Source of the DNA: Acidobacteriota bacterium | Lineage (GTDB): Bacteria > Acidobacteriota > UBA6911 > JACQSX01 | Direction of reading: 5' to 3' | Assembly (NCBI GenBank): GCA_036507075.1 | Contig: DASXQR010000110.1 | Coordinates: 1 to 36,390 of the forward strand | Length of the DNA stretch: 36,390 nt | The notes under the pieces: generated by a model | What the model was told of the DNA's origin: nothing | Databases searched by the model: none | Seen by the model: the letters and a program-made list of their open reading frames with translations, nothing else | Made by a program: the position numbers and the translations under genes | In this document: in pieces, positions 9,979 to 36,390 of the stretch | Layout: the number at the start of each line of letters is the position of its first letter | How positions within the stretch are numbered: position 1 is the stretch's first letter

Positions 9979-12420
9979 ATGACGAAATCGATGGTGATTG
10001 TGGAATCACCGGCAAAAGCGAAGACTATCGGCAAGTACCTCGGCGGAGATTTCATCGTCAAGGCTTCGTCCGGCCACATCAAAGATCTTCCCAAAGGAAA
10101 TCTCGGCGTCGATGTCGACAATGACTTCGAGCCCACCTACAAAATAATCCCTGGAAAAGAAAAGGTCGTCGATGAACTGAAGAAAGCAGCCAAGAGTGTG
10201 GCTGCGATTTATCTGGCGGCGGATCCGGACCGTGAAGGTGAAGCAATCTGCCAACACCTGGCCGAGATATTCCGTTCTTCCAGAAAGAGCGGTCAAAAGA
10301 TCTATCGCGTCCTTTTTAACGAGATCACCAAGAGCGCCATTCTGAGCGCGTTCGACAAACCCGGAGGAATAGACGAGAACAAAGTTGAGGCCCAACAGAC
10401 GCGCCGCATCCTGGACAGGCTGGTGGGTTACAAGATCAGTCCTCTGCTGTGGGAGAAAGTACGCCGCGGGCTCTCCGCCGGCAGGGTTCAGTCGGTGGCC
10501 CTGCGCATGATTGTCGATCGCGAACGCGAGATTCAGGCCTTCAAATCAGAAGAGTACTGGGTCTTTATCGCGAATCTGAGCGGCGAGACGCCGCCTCCGT
10601 TCGATGCGAAGGCAATCAAGCTGGATGGAAAGAAATTTCAGGTAGGCAGCCAGGAGCTCGCAGAGGAAATCGAAGCGCATCTCCGGCAGGTTTCTTTCCG
10701 CGTCAGCAGTGTCGTCGAGAAGGAAAAGAAGAAGAACCCGGTTCCCCCTTTCACCACCAGCAAGCTGCAGCAGGAAGCGGCGAGAAAGCTTCGCTTCGCT
10801 GTCAAACGTACCATGATGATTGCCCAGCGATTGTATGAAGGAATCGAAATCGGCGACGAAGGCGCGGTGGGCCTGATTACCTACATGCGCACCGACTCCA
10901 CCCGGGTGGCGGAATCCGCGCTGCAGGAAGTGCGCGGTTATGTCAAAGACCGCTACGGCGATCCGTACCTTCCCGAAAAAGCATCGCGCTACAAGAGCCA
11001 GAAAGGCGCGCAGGAAGCGCATGAAGCGATCCGGCCAACACTGGTGGAACGGACTCCGGAGAGCATTAAGAAATACCTCGATCGCGATGAGTACCGGCTT
11101 TACGACTTGATCTGGAAGCGGTTTGTGGCTTCGCAGATGCAGGGGGCGATTTTCGACCAGACCGACATTGAGATCGAAGCGGGGCGGGTGCTGTTCAAAG
11201 CTTCCGGCGCCGTTCTCAAGTTCGACGGCTTCCTCAAGGTTTATCATGAAGAAAGAGATGAAGACGCGCCGGCCGAGGCTGAGGCTCTCGACAGCGAAAA
11301 CCTGCTGCAACTACCGCTGGTGCGCGAAGGCGACGTGCTTGCGGTGAACAATTTGACAAAGGAGCAGAAGTTCACCCAGCCTCCTCCACGCTACACCGAA
11401 GCCACCCTGGTCAAGGCGCTGGAAGAAAAGGGCATCGGCAGGCCCAGTACATATGCCCAGATCGTCAACGTCATTCAGAATCGCGACTACGCGAACAAAC
11501 AGGAAGGAAAATTCTTCCCCACCGAAACGGGAATAGTTGTCACCGATTTGCTGGTGCAGCATTTTAAGGAAATTCTCGATTATCAGTACACGGCGCGCAT
11601 GGAAGAAACGCTGGATGAAATCGAAGAGGGCAAAGAGGACTGGATCGCTACGCTCCGGGACTTTTACAAGGAGTTCAAGAAGGAACTTGATCTGGCGTCT
11701 CGCCGCATGCAGAACCTGAAAAAACAGGAAATCGAGACGGAAGAGATTTGCGACAAATGCGGCAACAAGATGGTCATCAAGTGGGGCCGCTTCGGCCGCT
11801 TCCTGGCCTGCAGCAATTACCCTGAGTGCAAGAACACCAAGGAACTGGAGCGCGAAGCCCGTTCTGATTCCAGCGCGCCGGAGCCCGCCATTGAAACCGA
11901 GCCGTGCGAGAAGTGCGGCCGTCCGATGGTACTAAAAAAAGGAAGATTCGGAGAGTTTTTCGCCTGCAGCGGATATCCCGAATGCCGCACCACACGCAAG
12001 ATCGTTTCCAGCGGCGGCGAGCGCCATGTCAAAATGGACGTACCCACGGGTGAGCGATGCCCCAAGTGCGGCGAAGAAATGGTGATCAAGCACGGTCGCT
12101 TCGGCGAATTCACGGCGTGCAGCAAATACCCGGACTGCCGCTACATCAAGCAGGAAACTACGGGCGTGCAATGTCCCAAGTGCAAAAAGGGCGAGTTGGT
12201 CGTCAAGAAGTCCAGGCGGGGCAAGGTGTTTTACGGCTGCAGCTCTTACCCGGAATGCGATTTCGTCCTCTGGTACAAGCCGATTGCGGTTCCATGCCCA
12301 CGCTGCGGCGAGCGCTTCCTGATCGAGCGCCAGACCAAAAAAGAAGGCCTGATCCGGTACTGCCACCGCGAGGACTGTGACTACAAAGAAGCCGTGGAAG
12401 AAGCCCCCGCCAGCGCCTGA
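9979..12420 (+). CDS. topA: DNA topoisomerase I with C-terminal zinc-ribbon repeats
   Basis: IVESPAKAKTI, DPDREGEAI, SAGRVQS, LITYMRTDS and GIGRPSTYA motifs; four C4 ribbons plus a partial fifth. Confidence 0.97.
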   Translation: MTKSMVIVESPAKAKTIGKYLGGDFIVKASSGHIKDLPKGNLGVDVDNDFEPTYKIIPGKEKVVDELKKAAKSVAAIYLAADPDREGEAICQHLAEIFRSSRKSGQKIYRVLFNEITKSAILSAFDKPGGIDENKVEAQQTRRILDRLVGYKISPLLWEKVRRGLSAGRVQSVALRMIVDREREIQAFKSEEYWVFIANLSGETPPPFDAKAIKLDGKKFQVGSQELAEEIEAHLRQVSFRVSSVVEKEKKKNPVPPFTTSKLQQEAARKLRFAVKRTMMIAQRLYEGIEIGDEGAVGLITYMRTDSTRVAESALQEVRGYVKDRYGDPYLPEKASRYKSQKGAQEAHEAIRPTLVERTPESIKKYLDRDEYRLYDLIWKRFVASQMQGAIFDQTDIEIEAGRVLFKASGAVLKFDGFLKVYHEERDEDAPAEAEALDSENLLQLPLVREGDVLAVNNLTKEQKFTQPPPRYTEATLVKALEEKGIGRPSTYAQIVNVIQNRDYANKQEGKFFPTETGIVVTDLLVQHFKEILDYQYTARMEETLDEIEEGKEDWIATLRDFYKEFKKELDLASRRMQNLKKQEIETEEICDKCGNKMVIKWGRFGRFLACSNYPECKNTKELEREARSDSSAPEPAIETEPCEKCGRPMVLKKGRFGEFFACSGYPECRTTRKIVSSGGERHVKMDVPTGERCPKCGEEMVIKHGRFGEFTACSKYPDCRYIKQETTGVQCPKCKKGELVVKKSRRGKVFYGCSSYPECDFVLWYKPIAVPCPRCGERFLIERQTKKEGLIRYCHREDCDYKEAVEEAPASA

Positions 12421-20299: not shown

Positions 20300-21217
20300 T
20301 CACTCTTTCAGCGACGGTTGATCAATACTTGCCGGCAATTCGGGCAACGGTTCCCCTCGAGCCGGGTCGTCCGCCAGGGCTTTGCCCCATCGCCGCATTC
20401 GCGCAAGAAAATCCTTCAACTCTTCGGTTTCCGGAACCCGCTGGTTATTCTCATAGCCCTGGATCAAAATTTCTGTTTTGTGAAGAAGCTCGACCAGCAT
20501 CTCCCGCCGCCATTCAGGCCGGAGATCCTGATCGGGCAGGCGCGCGTGCAGCGCTTTGACCCTCCAGCGATCCATTCCCCAGAATTTGCGAGACAGTTGA
20601 TCTGCATGGCCGCCAAACTTCGTGATCAGCCGATCATTTACCAGCGAGACGGGAAACCTTGATGTGACGCGCAGCCAGAATTCGTAATCCTCGCAGACGG
20701 TAAAAGCAGTGTCGAAGACCCCCACTCGCTCCAACACGGACCGATGAACCAGCGATGACGAGGGACTGACAACGCACAGCGGAAGGCACTGGAGAAAGAT
20801 CCAGCCGCCGTGCTTCTGATGTTTCTTCATCGGATTTACCCGGCGCCCCCGCCGGATCCAGATCTCATCGGTATGACAGATTCGATCCCCGGTCGCGCCG
20901 ATCATTTCAAATTGTCTTTCCAGCTTTGCCGGCAGCCAGACGTCATCGGAATCCAGGAATGCAAGCCAGTCAGAGCGGGCCAGTTCTATGCCGCAGTTTC
21001 GGGCTGCCGATACTCCCTGATTCTCAGTCCTGTGATAGCGCACTCGCGGATCGGCGCCGAAGCGATTGCAGACATTTTCCGTGCCGTCCCGGGAGCCATC
21101 GTCCACGATGATCAGTTCCCAGTCAGCAAAAGTCTGCGTCAGAACAGATTCAATTGCGCGGGGAAGCAGCAACGCGCGATTCCATGTAGGAATGATGACG
21201 GAGACTTTGGGGATCAA
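20300..21217 (-). CDS. Glycosyltransferase family 2
   Basis: VSVIIPTWNR, VDDGSRD, GVSAARN, FLDSDD and EDYEFW motifs. Confidence 0.92.
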   Translation of the reverse strand: MIPKVSVIIPTWNRALLLPRAIESVLTQTFADWELIIVDDGSRDGTENVCNRFGADPRVRYHRTENQGVSAARNCGIELARSDWLAFLDSDDVWLPAKLERQFEMIGATGDRICHTDEIWIRRGRRVNPMKKHQKHGGWIFLQCLPLCVVSPSSSLVHRSVLERVGVFDTAFTVCEDYEFWLRVTSRFPVSLVNDRLITKFGGHADQLSRKFWGMDRWRVKALHARLPDQDLRPEWRREMLVELLHKTEILIQGYENNQRVPETEELKDFLARMRRWGKALADDPARGEPLPELPASIDQPSLKE

Positions 21218-21247
21218 TGGCGTATCGCCGCCGGCAGTTAACCAGAT

Positions 21248-21515
21248 GGTTATCGGGTTATCGGGTTATCGGGTTATCGGGTTATCGGGTTGCGGGTTAC
21301 CGGTTTTCGGGTTACGAGTTTTCGAATTACGGTTTTCGAGTTACGGGTTTTTGAAATTGCGCAATTTAGAGTTTTAAGCCTGCAAAGTTCGAAGCCCCAC
21401 GAATTCTCTGAATCTTCGATCCGGAACTCGTAACCTGATGACCGTCCGAAACCCGTAACCCGATAACCCGATAACCCGAAAACCCGTAACCCGATAACCC
21501 GTAACCCGAAAACTT
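21248..21515. repeat. Inverted octamer arrays (gggttatc)n ... (aacccgat/aacccgta)n
   Basis: Degenerating octamer array at 21248-21350 mirrored at ~21425-21515. Confidence 0.85.
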
Positions 21516-21526
21516 ATAGGCTGCAA

Positions 21527-24034
21527 CTAAGCGAGGGGTCGACCTTCGAATGAGATTAATCGCGGCTTTGATTTAAGTTTGCGATCAGTGCGCTGCACTT
21601 TGTTGGAGTACATGTTCTGATCGGCCAGCGCGATCAGCGCCTGCATATCCCTGCCATCTTCGGGAAATGTGGCGCACCCGACGCTGATGCCGATGCGAAT
21701 AACGGCGCCGTCCAGTTGCATTTCGTGCTCGTCAACGCTTCTCTGGATGCGCTGGATATTGTCTTCGGCCTGCGCCCGGTTTGCGCCCGAGAGCATCGCT
21801 ACAAATTCATCGCCGGCATAACGCACGCATGTGTCCGATTTGCGCATCTGATTTCGAAGGATGTGGGACACTTCAACCAGCAGCCTGTCCCCCACCTGGT
21901 GCCCATAGGTATCATTCACATGCTTGAATCTTTCCAGGTCCATCACCAGGATTGAAACCGGATAGCCGAGCCTTTCGGCGCGCCGAAATTCCTGCTCCAG
22001 GAAAATGTAGAGGTATCTGGAGTTGGGAAGTCCTGTCAGCAGGTCGGTATAGGCGTCCTCCTGGGTCTCTTCAAAGATCAGGGCGTTGTTGATGGCCACC
22101 GCGGCCTGTCTTCCAATGGTCTCCAGCAGCCGCTGGTGATCCTGGGAGTAATTTCGCGCGAATTCCGAATAAAGCGTGATGACGGCTACGATATTGCCTT
22201 CACTCGATAACGGCACCGACAAGCAGCTCTGAAACACATTCTGCAATTCACGCGAATCAGGAAAATCCCCGGCAGGTGAGGCATTCAGGATGGATTGATT
22301 GTTGGCCACCACCCAACCCGTGCAGCCTTCGCCACGCGCCGGATGCAGCTTTTCGATCTGCTCGGCATCTTTTCCCTGCGCGTGGAAGCACGACAGGCTG
22401 TCCCCGCCGCTGTCTACCAGGAAAATCCCGCAGGCGCTGTACGAGATGATGTTCTTGATCTTCCCCGCGATAATAGCCAGTGTCTCCGATACGCTTAAGG
22501 ATTTGCCCACGTTCTGAGAAAGCTCGTAAATGGCATGGATCTCTTTGTGCGTGGCCGCGATATCGTGAAAAACCGTGGTTTCAATGCGGTGCTTGCGACT
22601 GGTCACCTCAGCGGCAACAGATTCTTCGATGCTTCGCAGCACCGTCTCGGGCAGATGTGCTTCCTCTTCCCGCGCCCGCTTTTCCAGCGTCTCAATGTTC
22701 TCGGAAAACAGCCGCACCAGTTCCGGATCGTAGGAAATACTCGCCTCTTTCTGAATATAATCCAGCGCGACTTCGCGACTAAGCTCCGCCCGATAGGGGC
22801 GGTCGGAGCGCAGGGCGTCGTAACAGTCGACGATGGACAGAATGCGAGCGCCCAGGGGGATGGCGTCACCCTTCAGTCCATCGGGATAACCGCTTCCGTC
22901 CCACTTTTCATGATGGTGTTTGACCGTAGGCACGACGGGGAATGGAAAGTTCACAGAACTGAGAATGTCCGCACCCACTATGGGGTGGATCTTCATCTTC
23001 TGGAATTCACTTTCCGTAAGCGCGGTCGGCTTGTTGAGGATGTACTCGGGAATGGCCAGCTTTCCGACGTCGTGCAGAAGCGAAGCGGCCCTGAGTCCCT
23101 CTATTTCGCGAGTATCCCCTATACCTGCCAGCTCGGCCAGTCCCAGCGCAAAGCTCTGCACCCGGCGAACGTGGCCGTGCGTGGTTTGATCCTTCGCGTC
23201 AATGGCCATGGCCAGCGAGCTGATGGTTGAGTGGTAAAGCTCGTTCACTTCCGCCACGTGTTTCTGGGCCTGTTCGATCCTGTCCAGGTAAACCTTATAG
23301 GTGAAGTAAAAGACCATCACAATCGGAATGGTCACGGACACCAGATAGATACTTTCTCTGGGGACGTAATGGCGCGGCAGGTATACCACCAGAGTGGCGG
23401 CGGCAGCTCCTGCAAAATGGGTTAAAGAGGTCCAGAGGAAATTGTCCCACCACAGGTCGACAAAGCGAGTCCTGGTCACCAAAGACATGGCCAGGGCGAC
23501 GGAACCGCTGTTGAAGATGAACAAAACAATGGAAGCAATACTCAGCGAGAGCAGGACCTTGATCAGGTCCGGAGGAGAGGCAACGGGAAATTTTCCATTG
23601 CTGTAAAAGTGATAGAAAACCTTGCAAGCAAGAAAAGAGCCGATTGCCACGTTGGAGAAATTAAAAAGGAACCGGTATCCGCCGTCCAACTGCTTGCGCA
23701 TCTGGCTGCGCAGGTTGGATACCAGCGTGTCGACGACGGTAAGAATGACCGTCACATATGGGCCATACCAAAGGATTGCTACGTAAATAAAGACGTCTGA
23801 TAAGGTTACCGTCAGTGAGTGGGCCCGATTGGTCATGGTGGGAATTCGGACCGATAGAAGACCTCCCACGGTGGCAAGCACGGCCAGGAAAACCCATTCG
23901 TCATTCCTGCGGCTCACTACGAAAACCTGGAAAAGCGACCACACAAGGATGGCGCATCCTAAAAGATTAATTGTGTAAATAAAGGCTTTTGCTGGCAGGC
24001 TCAGGGGGGCGGAACTGTCCTCTTTAATGATCAT
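21527..24034 (-). CDS. Membrane-bound c-di-GMP signalling protein: ~7 TM sensor - HD-GYP - GAF - GGDEF
   Basis: Hydrophobic N-terminal ~250 aa; DAKD..T.GH, LLHDVGK and HHEKWDGSGYP; GAF (GCTGWV, CLSVPL); D.LTGLPN, FKHVNDTYGHQVGD and RKSD..RYAGDEF. Confidence 0.93.
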   Translation of the reverse strand: MIIKEDSSAPLSLPAKAFIYTINLLGCAILVWSLFQVFVVSRRNDEWVFLAVLATVGGLLSVRIPTMTNRAHSLTVTLSDVFIYVAILWYGPYVTVILTVVDTLVSNLRSQMRKQLDGGYRFLFNFSNVAIGSFLACKVFYHFYSNGKFPVASPPDLIKVLLSLSIASIVLFIFNSGSVALAMSLVTRTRFVDLWWDNFLWTSLTHFAGAAAATLVVYLPRHYVPRESIYLVSVTIPIVMVFYFTYKVYLDRIEQAQKHVAEVNELYHSTISSLAMAIDAKDQTTHGHVRRVQSFALGLAELAGIGDTREIEGLRAASLLHDVGKLAIPEYILNKPTALTESEFQKMKIHPIVGADILSSVNFPFPVVPTVKHHHEKWDGSGYPDGLKGDAIPLGARILSIVDCYDALRSDRPYRAELSREVALDYIQKEASISYDPELVRLFSENIETLEKRAREEEAHLPETVLRSIEESVAAEVTSRKHRIETTVFHDIAATHKEIHAIYELSQNVGKSLSVSETLAIIAGKIKNIISYSACGIFLVDSGGDSLSCFHAQGKDAEQIEKLHPARGEGCTGWVVANNQSILNASPAGDFPDSRELQNVFQSCLSVPLSSEGNIVAVITLYSEFARNYSQDHQRLLETIGRQAAVAINNALIFEETQEDAYTDLLTGLPNSRYLYIFLEQEFRRAERLGYPVSILVMDLERFKHVNDTYGHQVGDRLLVEVSHILRNQMRKSDTCVRYAGDEFVAMLSGANRAQAEDNIQRIQRSVDEHEMQLDGAVIRIGISVGCATFPEDGRDMQALIALADQNMYSNKVQRTDRKLKSKPRLISFEGRPLA

Positions 24035-24068: not shown

Positions 24069-24104
24069 AAAGAGGGGGGATACACCACATCCCCCCCCTT
24101 TTTT
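24069..24104. terminator. G/C stem-loop, probable (partial) intrinsic terminator
   Basis: aaagaggggggat-acaccac-atccccccccttt; T6 tail on the + strand, short TCTTT tail on the - strand. Confidence 0.6.
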
Positions 24105-24160: not shown

Positions 24161-24196
24161 CTACGTAGTCCAGTAGACGATTGATCTGATTATCAT
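24161..24196 (-). CDS. Small peptide MIIRSIVYWTT (11 aa; alternative in-frame ATG at 24235 gives MPKLSSRRKRRSSMIIRSIVYWTT)
   Basis: AAAGGAG 7 nt before ATG; reads ATG ATA ATC AGA TCA ATC GTC TAC TGG ACT ACG TAG; shares IVYWTT with the neighbouring peptide. Confidence 0.7.
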   Translation of the reverse strand: MIIRSIVYWTT

Positions 24197-24266
24197 ACTA
24201 GATCTCCTTTTTCGTCGAGAAGAAAGTTTTGGCATAGCAACCTCAACAGCAACTGGTGCTACCCTT

Positions 24267-24320
24267 TTACGTCGTCCAGTAAACGATCTGATTTGTCCAG
24301 TAAACGATTTGAGTATTCAT
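24267..24320 (-). CDS. Small peptide MNTQIVYWTNQIVYWTT (17 aa)
   Basis: Protease stop TAA is followed directly by AGGAG-5nt-ATG; two QIVYWT units with synonymous differences. Confidence 0.78.
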   Translation of the reverse strand: MNTQIVYWTNQIVYWTT

Positions 24321-24330
24321 GTCTTCTCCT

Positions 24331-26340
24331 TTATGCAAATTCGCCGGTTACAATGCTGTTAGTCCAAGTGATGAAATTGGTCCACGTAATCAGGTCCGAA
24401 TTGGTCCAGGTGATCAGATTGGTCCACGTGATCAGATCAGAGTTTGTCCAGGTGATCAGATCGGAGTTTGTCCAGGTGATCAGATCCGAATTCGTCCAGG
24501 TGATGAGATTGGTCCAGGTAATCAGATTCGTCCAGGTAATAAGGTCCGAATTGGTCCAGGTGATCAGGTCCGAATTGGTCCAGGTGATCAGGTCTGAATT
24601 GGTCCACGTAATCAAATCCGAAGCGGACAAAACTACGGGACTTGACCAGCTCACACTGTCAGTTGAGCCGCTTTTCCCCGTGAAAATCGGGTGATAACGC
24701 TGGATCAGCGGATCGCTCCAGGCCTTGTCGGTAATGGTAATCGCACTAGACCAGACTCTGCCGCTTCCCCAGACAGCGGCAGAATTAGAGCGGATGTAGC
24801 TTCCGTACACCACTCCCCTGCCGAGGATCATGGCCTGTCCCCAGTCAACTTTCTCGCTTCCGATATGCGAAAAGGGAACCGTGGCTCCCGCCTGGATAAT
24901 TCGATCCCCCGGTGTCCTTGACCTGATATCCCGGGTAATTACCGTTGCAAGACGCGCGGCGCCTTCGATGTTCACTTCGCCATTGCCCTGCTCCAGGAAA
25001 TTGGGGCGGGTCATTTTTTCGGCCGTGTACATCATCACAGCACGGGCCAGGTTCGTATTCAGGTCGGGATTGGCCTCCAGAACCAGGGCGAAAGCGCCGG
25101 AGACTACCGCTGCCGACATGGACGTGCCGCTGAGCGTTATCAGCTCATTGTCGGGGGAAAGCTGGCCGGGATAGGTTCCCGCCAGATAGGAACCCTTCGC
25201 GTTGATGGAAGTGATTCGGTGGCCCGGAGCTACGATATCGGGCTTTAAGAGACCATCCGGGAAAGAGGGTCCAATTGCGCTGAATCTGGCAATTTCGTCG
25301 TCGGATCGAGAAACAGTGCCGTTTGATTTTGTGGCGCCCACCGCCACAACCAACGGGTTGTTTGCCGGCGAGTAGATGCCGCCAACCACAGTCCGTCCTT
25401 CGAAGTAACCCGAATTGCCGGCGGAAGCCACAACAATTATTCCAGCTTCAACGGCGCGCTGAGCGGCTCGCGACAAGGGGTCTGTGGCATAGCCTTCCTT
25501 AGGTCCGTGACCGGCCGAAAGGTTGATTATGTTGATCCCATACTGACGCTTGTTTCTTACACACCAATCCAGCGCGCTTATAACGTCACTGGTGCGACCC
25601 GAACCATCATCCCCAAGTGCCCTCAGGGAAATCAGGTTTACGTCAGGGGCCATTCCTCGGAACGAGCTGCCGGCACTCTCAAGTCTCCCGCCAATGAGTC
25701 CGGCAACATGAGTTCCATGGCCGTAACCATCCCGGCTCTGGAAGTCGTTGCCGTCCTCTGCGGCAGAGTTGGTGAAATCTCGTGAGGCAATTACCCTCAG
25801 ACCAACACGTCGATCGATACCGCTGTCGATCACCGCCACCGTGACGCCCTTACCGGTCAAACCGAGTGCCGCCCCTGCCTGCTGAGCCCCCGTTGTCTCG
25901 GACGTCAAGCTTGCGTCAGGTTCATAGCCGCTCGCTTGAACCGGGTCGTCGGCCGAGACGCGAACCACATCCTCGCCGAGCGCAAGATCGACCAGTCTTT
26001 CCATGGGAAGCTCGAGTGCCTGCGCCTGAATCAGGGAAAGCTGTTTCAGCACGCGCCCTCCCAGAGCTTGAACCCAGGCTTCATTCAGCCGGCCTCGATC
26101 GACAGCTTCAGACTTTTGAGCGCGGTTTTGAAACTGGACAATCACTCGGACTAGGCGTGACGTCTGCCTGGATCGATAAGCTTGGGCAAGTTCACTCAGA
26201 ACATCCGGTGACAGGCGCTTTTCGAGCCGGTTGTAAAGGCTCTCGTAGGGTTTGGAAGTGGCAGCGATCGCGGGAGTCGTCAGGACAATGAGAATAGCGA
26301 GCGCGAACAGCCACTTCCGCTTGACGATGGTGTGGGCCAT
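24331..26340 (-). CDS. Secreted S8 (subtilisin-like) serine protease with C-terminal Trp-repeat tail
   Basis: AAGGAGG RBS; signal peptide; prodomain; triad VAVIDSG / HGTHVAG / SGTSMS and oxyanion SAGN; 12 (SD)LITWTN repeats. Confidence 0.95.
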   Translation of the reverse strand: MAHTIVKRKWLFALAILIVLTTPAIAATSKPYESLYNRLEKRLSPDVLSELAQAYRSRQTSRLVRVIVQFQNRAQKSEAVDRGRLNEAWVQALGGRVLKQLSLIQAQALELPMERLVDLALGEDVVRVSADDPVQASGYEPDASLTSETTGAQQAGAALGLTGKGVTVAVIDSGIDRRVGLRVIASRDFTNSAAEDGNDFQSRDGYGHGTHVAGLIGGRLESAGSSFRGMAPDVNLISLRALGDDGSGRTSDVISALDWCVRNKRQYGINIINLSAGHGPKEGYATDPLSRAAQRAVEAGIIVVASAGNSGYFEGRTVVGGIYSPANNPLVVAVGATKSNGTVSRSDDEIARFSAIGPSFPDGLLKPDIVAPGHRITSINAKGSYLAGTYPGQLSPDNELITLSGTSMSAAVVSGAFALVLEANPDLNTNLARAVMMYTAEKMTRPNFLEQGNGEVNIEGAARLATVITRDIRSRTPGDRIIQAGATVPFSHIGSEKVDWGQAMILGRGVVYGSYIRSNSAAVWGSGRVWSSAITITDKAWSDPLIQRYHPIFTGKSGSTDSVSWSSPVVLSASDLITWTNSDLITWTNSDLITWTNSDLITWTNLITWTNLITWTNSDLITWTNSDLITWTNSDLITWTNLITWTNSDLITWTNFITWTNSIVTGEFA
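24358..24621 (-). repeat. Coding tandem repeat: 8x SDLITWTN + 3x LITWTN + 1x FITWTN
   Basis: 24- and 18-nt units counted in both DNA and translation. Confidence 0.95.
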
Positions 26341-26419: not shown

Positions 26420-26552
26420 CTTCGGCGACCGGTCGACCTGCCCTCAACCGTTCAAGGCTGCTTGCGCCTGTCCAATGACACACAGCCCGTTCGGCCTCGG
26501 ATTTAGGTCCGCGGCTTTGCGCCCTGATCTTTCAACCAGGTTGCCCTTTCGG
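26420..26552 (-). ncRNA. c-di-GMP-I (GEMM) riboswitch aptamer, proximal copy with long P3 insertion
   Basis: Minus strand CCGAAAGGGCAACCTGGTT-GAAA-GATCAGGGCGCAAAGCCGCGGACCTAAA...GGTCGACCGGTCGCCGAAG matches the GEMM pattern GGCAA-stem-GAAA-stem-GCAAAGCC..G.CTAA...GCC. Confidence 0.78.
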
Positions 26553-26567
26553 TGGTGGTGCCCCCCT

Positions 26568-26655
26568 CGTACGGCAGCCGTCGAAACCTTATCGTCCAGA
26601 CTTAGGTCCGCGGCTTTGCTTAGCCATCTTTCGACTGGCTTCGCCTTTTCGTCGT
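26568..26655 (-). ncRNA. c-di-GMP-I (GEMM) riboswitch aptamer, distal copy
   Basis: Minus strand GAAAAGGCGAAGCCAGTC-GAAA-GATGGCTAAGCAAAGCCGCGGACCTAAG...GGTTTCGACGGCTGCCG; shares the 18-nt core GCAAAGCCGCGGACCTAA with the proximal copy. Confidence 0.75.
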
Positions 26656-36145: not shown

Positions 36146-36194
36146 CCGTTTATCTACAGTCCGGAGCCTTTCACTCGTGACTAGATCCACTTTC

Positions 36195-36387
36195 GATTGC
36201 GGAAATCGGAATGCGGAATGCGGAATAAGTATCGGTACTCATTTTGACCACGAATCGGTTCTCTGTCGTATTCCCAACTCCCTATCCCGCATTCCGCATT
36301 CCCCATTCCCCATTCCGCATTCCGCATTCCGCATTCCGCATTCCCCATTCCAAATTCCACATTCCGCATTTCAAATTCCGCATTCAA
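36195..36387. repeat. Inverted heptamer arrays (gaatgcg)n ... (attccgc/attcccc)n
   Basis: Short left array at 36197-36225 and long right array at ~36287-36385. Confidence 0.85.
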
Positions 36388-36390
36388 TAT

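Follow-up and report, generated by a model that had tools for sequence, protein, structure and literature searches.

The locus: a protease, two micro-ORFs and a receptor

Along the minus strand of the window, by which we mean the whole stretch of DNA analysed (36,390 nucleotides), two c-di-GMP-I riboswitches are followed by a gene for an S8 subtilase, two micro-ORFs, a hairpin and a gene for a MASE9-HD-GYP-GAF-GGDEF receptor (Table 1; G, C, L and f numbers are our handles for genomes, contigs, loci and families, G000 being the genome of the window). The N-terminus of the protease is hydrophobic and, judged by eye, resembles a signal peptide; the enzyme appears to be secreted. Its tail is made of repeated Trp units, for which AlphaFold2 gives no confident fold (pLDDT below 30 with a 12-sequence alignment). 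In the receptor, the GGDEF motif reads AGDEF. Riboswitches of the same type stand upstream in three of 20 other loci scanned, one in G001 and two each in G004 and G005. A hairpin similar to that of the window is present in G001, where it has a terminator-like score on both strands.

The original prediction described the two micro-ORFs with their Shine-Dalgarno sequences (SD), IVYWT units that differ at synonymous sites, and an in-frame ATG at 24235 that would provide the second ORF with a basic leader. All these features are confirmed to the letter in the sequence. The ATG is there and would give a 24-aa form, but none of the six related loci inspected has a counterpart, and we rejected the leader form as non-conserved and probably incidental. 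A sigma-70-like site at 24218-24189 was discarded as well, as it is no better than chance.

Table 1. Features of the locus, with related loci of the same genome given by contig
Feature	Position	Strand	Remarks
c-di-GMP-I riboswitch aptamer 1	26570..26655	-	38.2 bits (gathering 35)
c-di-GMP-I riboswitch aptamer 2	26478..26555	-	36.9 bits
S8 subtilase	24331..26340	-	669 aa; Asp/His/Ser motifs intact
Protease tail	24358..24621	-	12 (SD)[LF]ITWTN units
SD of micro-ORF 1	24326..24330	-	AGGAG; abuts protease stop codon TAA (24333-24331), 5 nt upstream of ATG
Micro-ORF 1	24267..24320	-	17 aa, two IVYWT units, Trp third from C-terminus; MNTQIVYWTNQIVYWTT-stop
SD of micro-ORF 2	24204..24209	-	AAGGAG; 7 nt upstream of ATG
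Micro-ORF 2	24161..24196	-	11 aa, one IVYWT unit; MIIRSIVYWTT-stop
Candidate 24-aa long form of micro-ORF 2 (rejected)	24161..24235	-	in-frame ATG 24235, GAGGT SD
G+C-rich hairpin, gap between micro-ORFs and receptor	24074..24096	.	terminator-like score on + strand only, not above shuffles
MASE9-HD-GYP-GAF-GGDEF receptor	21527..24034	-	835 aa; HD and GYP motifs intact
MASE9 membrane domain	23252..24034	-	ECF S-component-like core
Paralogous Trp-tailed S8 locus	G000:C210:12157-14810
Paralogous Trp-tailed S8 locus	G000:C133:18236-20926
Paralogous Trp-tailed S8 locus	G000:C62:32164-34804
ftsL copy	G000:C176:7740-7816	-	outside window; two chained ORFs, VSIIWADEIPENKKENS and MTIVYWTE

A strict search of the 6.1-Mb genome for the motif followed by a stop codon returns three matches, every one with AAGGAG: the two micro-ORFs of the window and one copy 3' of ftsL. 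In three shuffled genomes the counts were 0, 0 and 2, falling to 0, 0 and 0 once an SD of at least four bases was required. A looser search, accepting the motif at any place in a small ORF, is not above chance (8 matches in the real genome against 5-6 in shuffled ones). The three Trp-tailed S8 genes found elsewhere in the genome have no micro-ORF; close behind each comes a MASE9-like gene that stands alone, with a product of about 255-265 aa and no output domain.

Conservation of the micro-genes

Micro-genes that echo the tail motif proved to be conserved: RBS-led ORFs ending in [IV]-[VIL]-[YH]-W-x-x-stop are kept at orthologous loci, among which the tail units vary (LITWTN, SVMWTS, QILWSD, QVIWTD). 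A protease with SVMWTS units (G001) is followed by MNTQIVYWTD, MRNQIVYWTSIVYWTN and MNSIVYWTN, and one with QILWSD units (G004) by MVRIVYWTD, MVQIVYWTD and VSTGKIVHWDN. Similarly, GSLWSD goes with MKIIYWTE and MRIVYWD (G005), SILWGD with MKFVVYWGD (G023), GAMWAD with MVHWID (G037), and QVIWTD with multi-unit IVHWTD ORFs (G013, where the ORF reaches 36 aa, and G021). Loci of other classes, fetched via the receptor alone, show the identical gene order and ORFs such as MSKLIIWGE, MTPIIVWS and MQKIIVWD. Majority membership of the 79 named related loci is in the Acidobacteriota. In an Armatimonadota locus (L111), a 15-aa ORF ending in AVWVD lies 26 nt 3' of the S8 stop codon, and the arrangement may thus extend beyond the Acidobacteriota.

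The check proposed with the original prediction was carried out by scanning all six frames downstream of homologous S8 genes, and it found RBS-led Trp micro-ORFs. For counting we used a fixed rule, an SD-led micro-ORF with Trp 2-4 from its end, and applied it to 107 distinct Trp-tailed S8 loci; the rule was set after the data had been seen, and related genomes are not independent. Where the S8 gene precedes a MASE9-HD-GYP gene, a micro-ORF is found in 22 of 28 loci (or in 19 of 24, once four loci retrieved solely through the motif are set aside). None occurs in the 11 loci with MASE9 without HD-GYP, a weak figure since the spacers there average 71 nt. S8 genes with no MASE9 detected within 1.5 kb have a micro-ORF in nine of 60 cases, those with an unresolved receptor in one of two, and truncated loci in none of six. 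The reverse complement gave no hit, and shuffles at most 0.5 per group (0.1 expected for the 28-locus group). One locus among the 28 (L201) and one of the ftsL negatives discussed below (L252) belong to an unpublished genome, G015, and no conclusion rests on either. Six of the 28 protease-receptor loci have no micro-ORF by the fixed rule, although one of these, L109, carries one just beyond the span searched. The closest paralogue in G005 (L060) is also without one, so that the micro-ORF is dispensable. Copy number per locus goes from 0 to 3.

The codons tell the same story. In 35 units from anchored loci, variation falls mainly at third codon positions and all three types of stop codon are used; pN/pS comes to 0.21 in the reading frame, as compared with 0.68 and 0.97 in the two shifted ones, for units which were chosen by motif and are biased to that extent. 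Over 137 genomes of the class, a DNA pattern gave 46 stop-ending matches against 4 with the reversed pattern; this pattern let TGG through, so that 16 of 62 rows had to be dropped, and at least four of the remaining 46 are without a start codon or off-motif. In a scan of the phylum, three of 401 genomes matched, all of this class, one of them being a chance match with an in-frame stop; as the pattern left out TAG stops, the result speaks only weakly for a Y/H form limited to the class. Two metagenome scans, one with a pattern that left out TAG stops, returned no match. Decay of tail-repeat DNA, for which frameshifts or non-synonymous drift at orthologous loci had been named beforehand as the mark, is made unlikely by these comparative data.

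As far as sequence can tell, the micro-ORFs are a real and conserved family of micro-genes, the function of which we infer below, and the two in the window are very probably translated genes for short peptides. The family is apparently undescribed so far: no description of the system was found in the open-access literature.

An altered copy of the tail unit

How do the peptides relate to the tail of the protease? The contrast had been read as a local T-to-Y change next to Trp. This is wrong: T before Trp is itself unusual in tails (23 of 940 units). In the same 940 units Y never precedes Trp and H does so once, while Y or H is the rule in the micro-ORFs of this class. Micro-ORFs of other classes have an aliphatic residue before Trp and differ from the tail mostly at the end. 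The residue after Trp, on the other hand, is shared with the tail of the same locus in 18 of 30 cases (permutation mean 9.1) and, within the class, in 11 of 15 (permutation mean 7.5), both figures being uncorrected for phylogeny. The shift and the match together make the peptide a systematically altered, yet locus-tuned, copy of the tail unit.

In both ORFs of the window, and in 55 of the 58 ORFs compared, two residues follow Trp, which is for the most part a consequence of the search rule. The ORFs range overall from 6 to 36 aa; 42 of the 58 have 6-11 aa and no leader. In the best explanation, to which as a whole we would give an even chance, the C-terminal [IV]-[VIL]-[YH]-W-x-x unit is the active part of the peptides and works in trans.

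Two further sequences may be placed beside these. At L172, about 105 nt 3' of the S8 stop codon, a 32-aa ORF has a single SAVWGS unit preceded by an apparent signal peptide. In G050 an identical 21-mer occurs at nine places; it is probably a repeated mobile element and stands outside this family.

Copies at ftsL and orphan copies

The third strict match of the genome belongs to a pair of chained ORFs on contig C176 (Table 1). The first starts on the ftsL stop codon, and the second overlaps the stop of the first. Relatives have VKILYWTD (G001), MTIIHWTD (G002) and MTILYWTD (G003) at the ftsL overlap, and in G004 (L247) the copy has decayed to MTMR; an ftsL-overlapping micro-ORF is thus present in four of the five genomes of the family (relatives' loci L245, L246 and L248). 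It was found in none of 25 other genomes of the class, as represented by the best 30 loci of 130 genomes with an ftsL match. In most of these 25 genomes ftsI starts at the ftsL stop codon or within a few codons of it; in the family with the ftsL copy ftsI is displaced by 156-281 nt, and the micro-ORF occupies the slot that the ftsI start normally uses. In G001 and G004, ftsI and the protease gene are about 15 kb apart on one contig.

Low-complexity tandem repeats of 7-8 nt fill several spacers: positions 21217-21526 and 36190-36390 of the window, positions 1-120 of C176, and the ftsL-ftsI spacers of G001 and G003. One repeat type is common to the end of the window and the start of C176, which suggests that the two contigs are adjacent in the dcw cluster. 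The genome also has a second MASE9-HD-GYP-GAF gene (G000:C228:66382-68562, plus strand); the 1.5 kb upstream of it contain neither a Trp-tailed protease nor a micro-ORF. Its product is possibly an orphan receptor for the ftsL peptides.

Finally, some copies are orphans. Eight loci (L068, L069, L095, L096, L098, L100, L102 and L103) have ORFs of 23-26 aa ending in VVYWTD or IVYWTD; those of family f12 share a conserved leader that contains Cys and Pro. Four orphan ORFs are flanked by a TPR gene on one side and a convergent SPOR-domain gene on the other. Over 11 orphan loci, the gene that follows lies on the other strand in five (four of which are one orthologous site), on the same strand in four and undetermined in two.

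A membrane domain with an apparently inverted core

The membrane domain of the window's receptor scores 23.0 bits with PF20972, against a cut-off of 24.3, and that of an orthologue (L110) 38.7 bits. When the structural model of MASE9 (pLDDT 87.5) is compared with known structures, the 15 best matches are ECF S components, with Z 13.6-9.2 and an rmsd of 3.3-4.7 over 153-192 residues. These span about residues 40-230 of the domain, and the next, unrelated, match is at Z 8.3. Foldseek gives weak agreement, with E 3.7e-3 at best (TM 0.46/0.65) and no match at E of 0.001 or below. The earlier description of MASE9 has eight predicted transmembrane segments, fused to HD-GYP or HD-GYP-GAF-GGDEF, and proposes binding within the membrane; its main text contains neither 'peptidase' nor 'tryptophan' and names no ligand (bioRxiv 10.1101/2021.11.05.467447).

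Loops L1, L3 and L5 of MASE9 carry 8.3 K/R together, against 2.1 in the other loops, and the difference has the same sign in 96 of 96 sequences. Many conserved residues are at the L1/L3/L5 side (S79, D80, F124, N125, W195, F199 and W201), and helix 6 is separated from the cytoplasmic HD-GYP by a further hydrophobic helix. S components and 5TMR receptors, in the passages that PMC11109136 devotes to them, have their binding site near the outside and helix 6 leading into the cytoplasm. Given the extra helix after helix 6 and the opposite charge bias, the core of MASE9 appears inverted; its pocket side probably faces the cytoplasm, as judged by charge bias and helix counting only. The idea that the peptides might act from the cytoplasm, already put forward with the original prediction, is strengthened by this putative topology: peptides without a signal could reach an inward pocket, where tail units would need import.

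A proposed role, and its rivals

We are led to propose, as a reading with about as much chance of being right as of being wrong, that the signal-less micropeptides are cytoplasmic ligands of MASE9 that tune c-di-GMP, with the tail units as their exported counterpart. Having no signal peptide, they would stay inside the cell, in the cytoplasm or the inner membrane leaflet, and bind the inward-facing S-component-like pocket of the neighbouring MASE9. The tail of the protease would be an exported, aliphatic version of the unit, in need of cutting and re-import; the Opp-type genes that occur near some of the loci (see below) speak for such a route, and their absence beside the locus of the window speaks against it. 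The Y/H peptide would be a distinct, in-house ligand, agonist or antagonist, that sets or opposes the signal of tail-derived units. The riboswitches would close a c-di-GMP feedback loop, and the ftsL-coupled copy would tie the supply of peptide to translation of the division operon. Counting against MASE9 as the target, micro-ORFs are also found far from any receptor.

The peptides could also be exported without a Sec signal, as the precursors of SHP, ComS and iCF10 are, and act on MASE9 from the outside, in the manner of pheromones or inhibitors. Their hydrophobic character and C-terminal core would fit, the orphan forms look like precursors, the ORF of L172 has its single unit behind an apparent signal peptide, and ComX likewise has its Trp 3-4 residues from the C-terminus. 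We hold this route to be rather unlikely, nevertheless: most ORFs are short and leaderless, the charge bias puts the pocket side of MASE9 inward, and neither an exporter nor a modifying enzyme was seen among the recurrent neighbour families, of which 17 of 22 clusters were scanned in Pfam and the other five judged by eye.

Ranking after export, and unlikely too, is another partner in trans, either a cytoplasmic TPR or sigma-54 regulator in the RRNPP manner or the S8 protease, for which the peptide would be an inhibitor or a folding aid. Such a partner would account for the micro-ORFs at S8 loci without a nearby MASE9 (the nine of 60). A sigma-54/PilZ activator recurs near S8 genes, an Opp-type peptide-binding protein gene is found near 16 of 103 loci examined, mostly S8 loci, and one orphan locus lies 3' of a TPR gene. 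The micro-ORF, however, goes with MASE9-HD-GYP more closely than with the protease by itself, a search of this genome at E 1e-12 did not turn up the kinase-led neighbour gene, and the protease is apparently secreted whereas the peptides are not. In the genome of the window no Opp operon stands beside a Trp-tailed S8 gene, and homologues are on other contigs.

Lower again in our ranking is an action in cis, where the micro-ORFs would be ribosome-stalling or attenuation leaders controlling the downstream receptor or ftsI. It would suit a motif fixed directly before the stop codon (bearing in mind that this position is largely search-imposed), the hairpin downstream in G000 and G001, and the place of the ftsL copy upstream of ftsI. 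Yet the gap to the next gene can be as short as about 10 nt or exceed 1,000 nt, five of the 11 orphan loci (four being one orthologous locus) are followed by a gene of opposite orientation, and both the likeness to the protease tail and the covariation with it would be left unexplained. Very unlikely is a structural role, with the tail stacked as a beta-solenoid or in an amyloid-like manner and the micropeptides as loose rungs by which the stack would be capped or seeded: the regular Trp repeats of 6-8 residues and a weak hexapeptide-repeat lead in the ESM Atlas (28% of the members of one cluster, the clusters being unnamed) are offset by the low pLDDT of the tail, by irregular unit spacing and by the probable location of tail and peptides in different compartments. 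That the ORFs are functionless, decayed or chance copies of tail-repeat DNA, directly behind which they lie, with codons in common, a copy number down to zero and one decayed ftsL copy, is scarcely credible and largely refuted by comparison: the units of the window are closer to micro-ORFs of other genomes (best 13-16 of 18 nt) than to their own tail (11-12 of 18), different families preserve the SD and the places of start and stop, and there are copies far from any tail.

Taken at its widest, the reading of the micropeptides as cytoplasmic ligands would amount to a new class of peptide signalling: an inside-out S-component sensor would compare a reimported tail unit with leaderless peptides of 6-17 residues, and one peptide gene, having taken over the ftsL-coupled start site, would feed translation of the division operon into c-di-GMP. 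This wider picture is speculative, and we rate it as doubtful. If true, it would tie the expression of division genes in Acidobacteriota to c-di-GMP; an inward-facing S-component receptor would be unexpected, as would a signal-like peptide gene translationally coupled within the dcw operon. MASE9 is an orphan sensor without a known ligand, and the micro-genes name short candidates; as these are short enough to synthesise, the question of its ligand becomes directly testable. Conserved genes of 6-11 codons are, besides, among the smallest known, under annotation cut-offs.

Comparison with known systems

In its logic the locus resembles peptide-pheromone circuits. Of these ComQXPA, the quorum-sensing system of Bacillus with the pheromone ComX, comes to mind first. 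The passages on ComX in PMC5331326 and PMC4008528 describe precursors of 52-73 aa with Trp 3-4 residues from the C-terminus, prenylated by the adjacent ComQ and read by the histidine kinase ComP, the gene lying beside a multi-pass membrane sensor. Here too we have a short peptide, Trp 2-4 residues from its C-terminus and a gene beside a membrane sensor; but the ORFs have 6-36 aa (11 and 17 in the window), the sensor is MASE9-HD-GYP/GGDEF, and the unit is repeated on the tail of a protease. No ComQ prenyltransferase is adjacent, the flanking genes being those of the S8 protease and of MASE9-HD-GYP. Prenylation of the ComQ type was considered and rejected, the three PF00348 genes of the genome being on other contigs, with second motifs of the DD type and not the ND/GD of ComQ; none has a Trp micro-ORF behind it. 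At G000:C107, about 10970-11638 on the minus strand, a polyprenyl-synthase domain stands behind an N-terminal Cys-rich region in an open frame of 627 codons.

The RRNPP, Rgg/SHP and ComR/XIP systems have tiny ORFs beside the receptor gene, maturation by proteases, re-import through Opp and binding on the cytoplasmic side; the receptor of RRNPP and Rgg/SHP is an adjacent soluble regulator with TPR domains. In the enterococcal cCF10/iCF10 pair, a peptide that comes out of a larger exported protein is countered by one from a small ORF. The tiny ORFs beside a receptor gene are common to our locus and the RRNPP-type systems. The differences are a membrane receptor with an S-component fold and a c-di-GMP output, a protease that itself carries the units, and ORFs that are mostly leaderless; no TPR family was detected in the 20 window proteins scanned, both flanking genes included. 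RiPP precursors of the triceptide and biarylitide types have a radical SAM/SPASM or P450 modifying enzyme in their cluster, and no such enzyme was seen in the recurrent neighbour clusters (17 of 22 by Pfam, five by eye). As compared with arrest or attenuator leaders, spacing to the next gene varies here, and some copies face a convergent gene.

On the side of the receptor, the domain architecture agrees with the published HD-GYP-GAF-GGDEF fusion of MASE9 (PF20972), as that preprint describes it. The 5TMR-LYT receptors, in the relevant passages of PMC11109136, use a six-helix S-component core as a receptor, with an extra helix H0; the main text of that paper does not mention 'MASE'. In our model the six-helix core of MASE9 likewise superposes on solved S components. 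The latter have their binding site near the outside, whereas the L1/L3/L5 side of MASE9, going by its K/R bias, would look inward.
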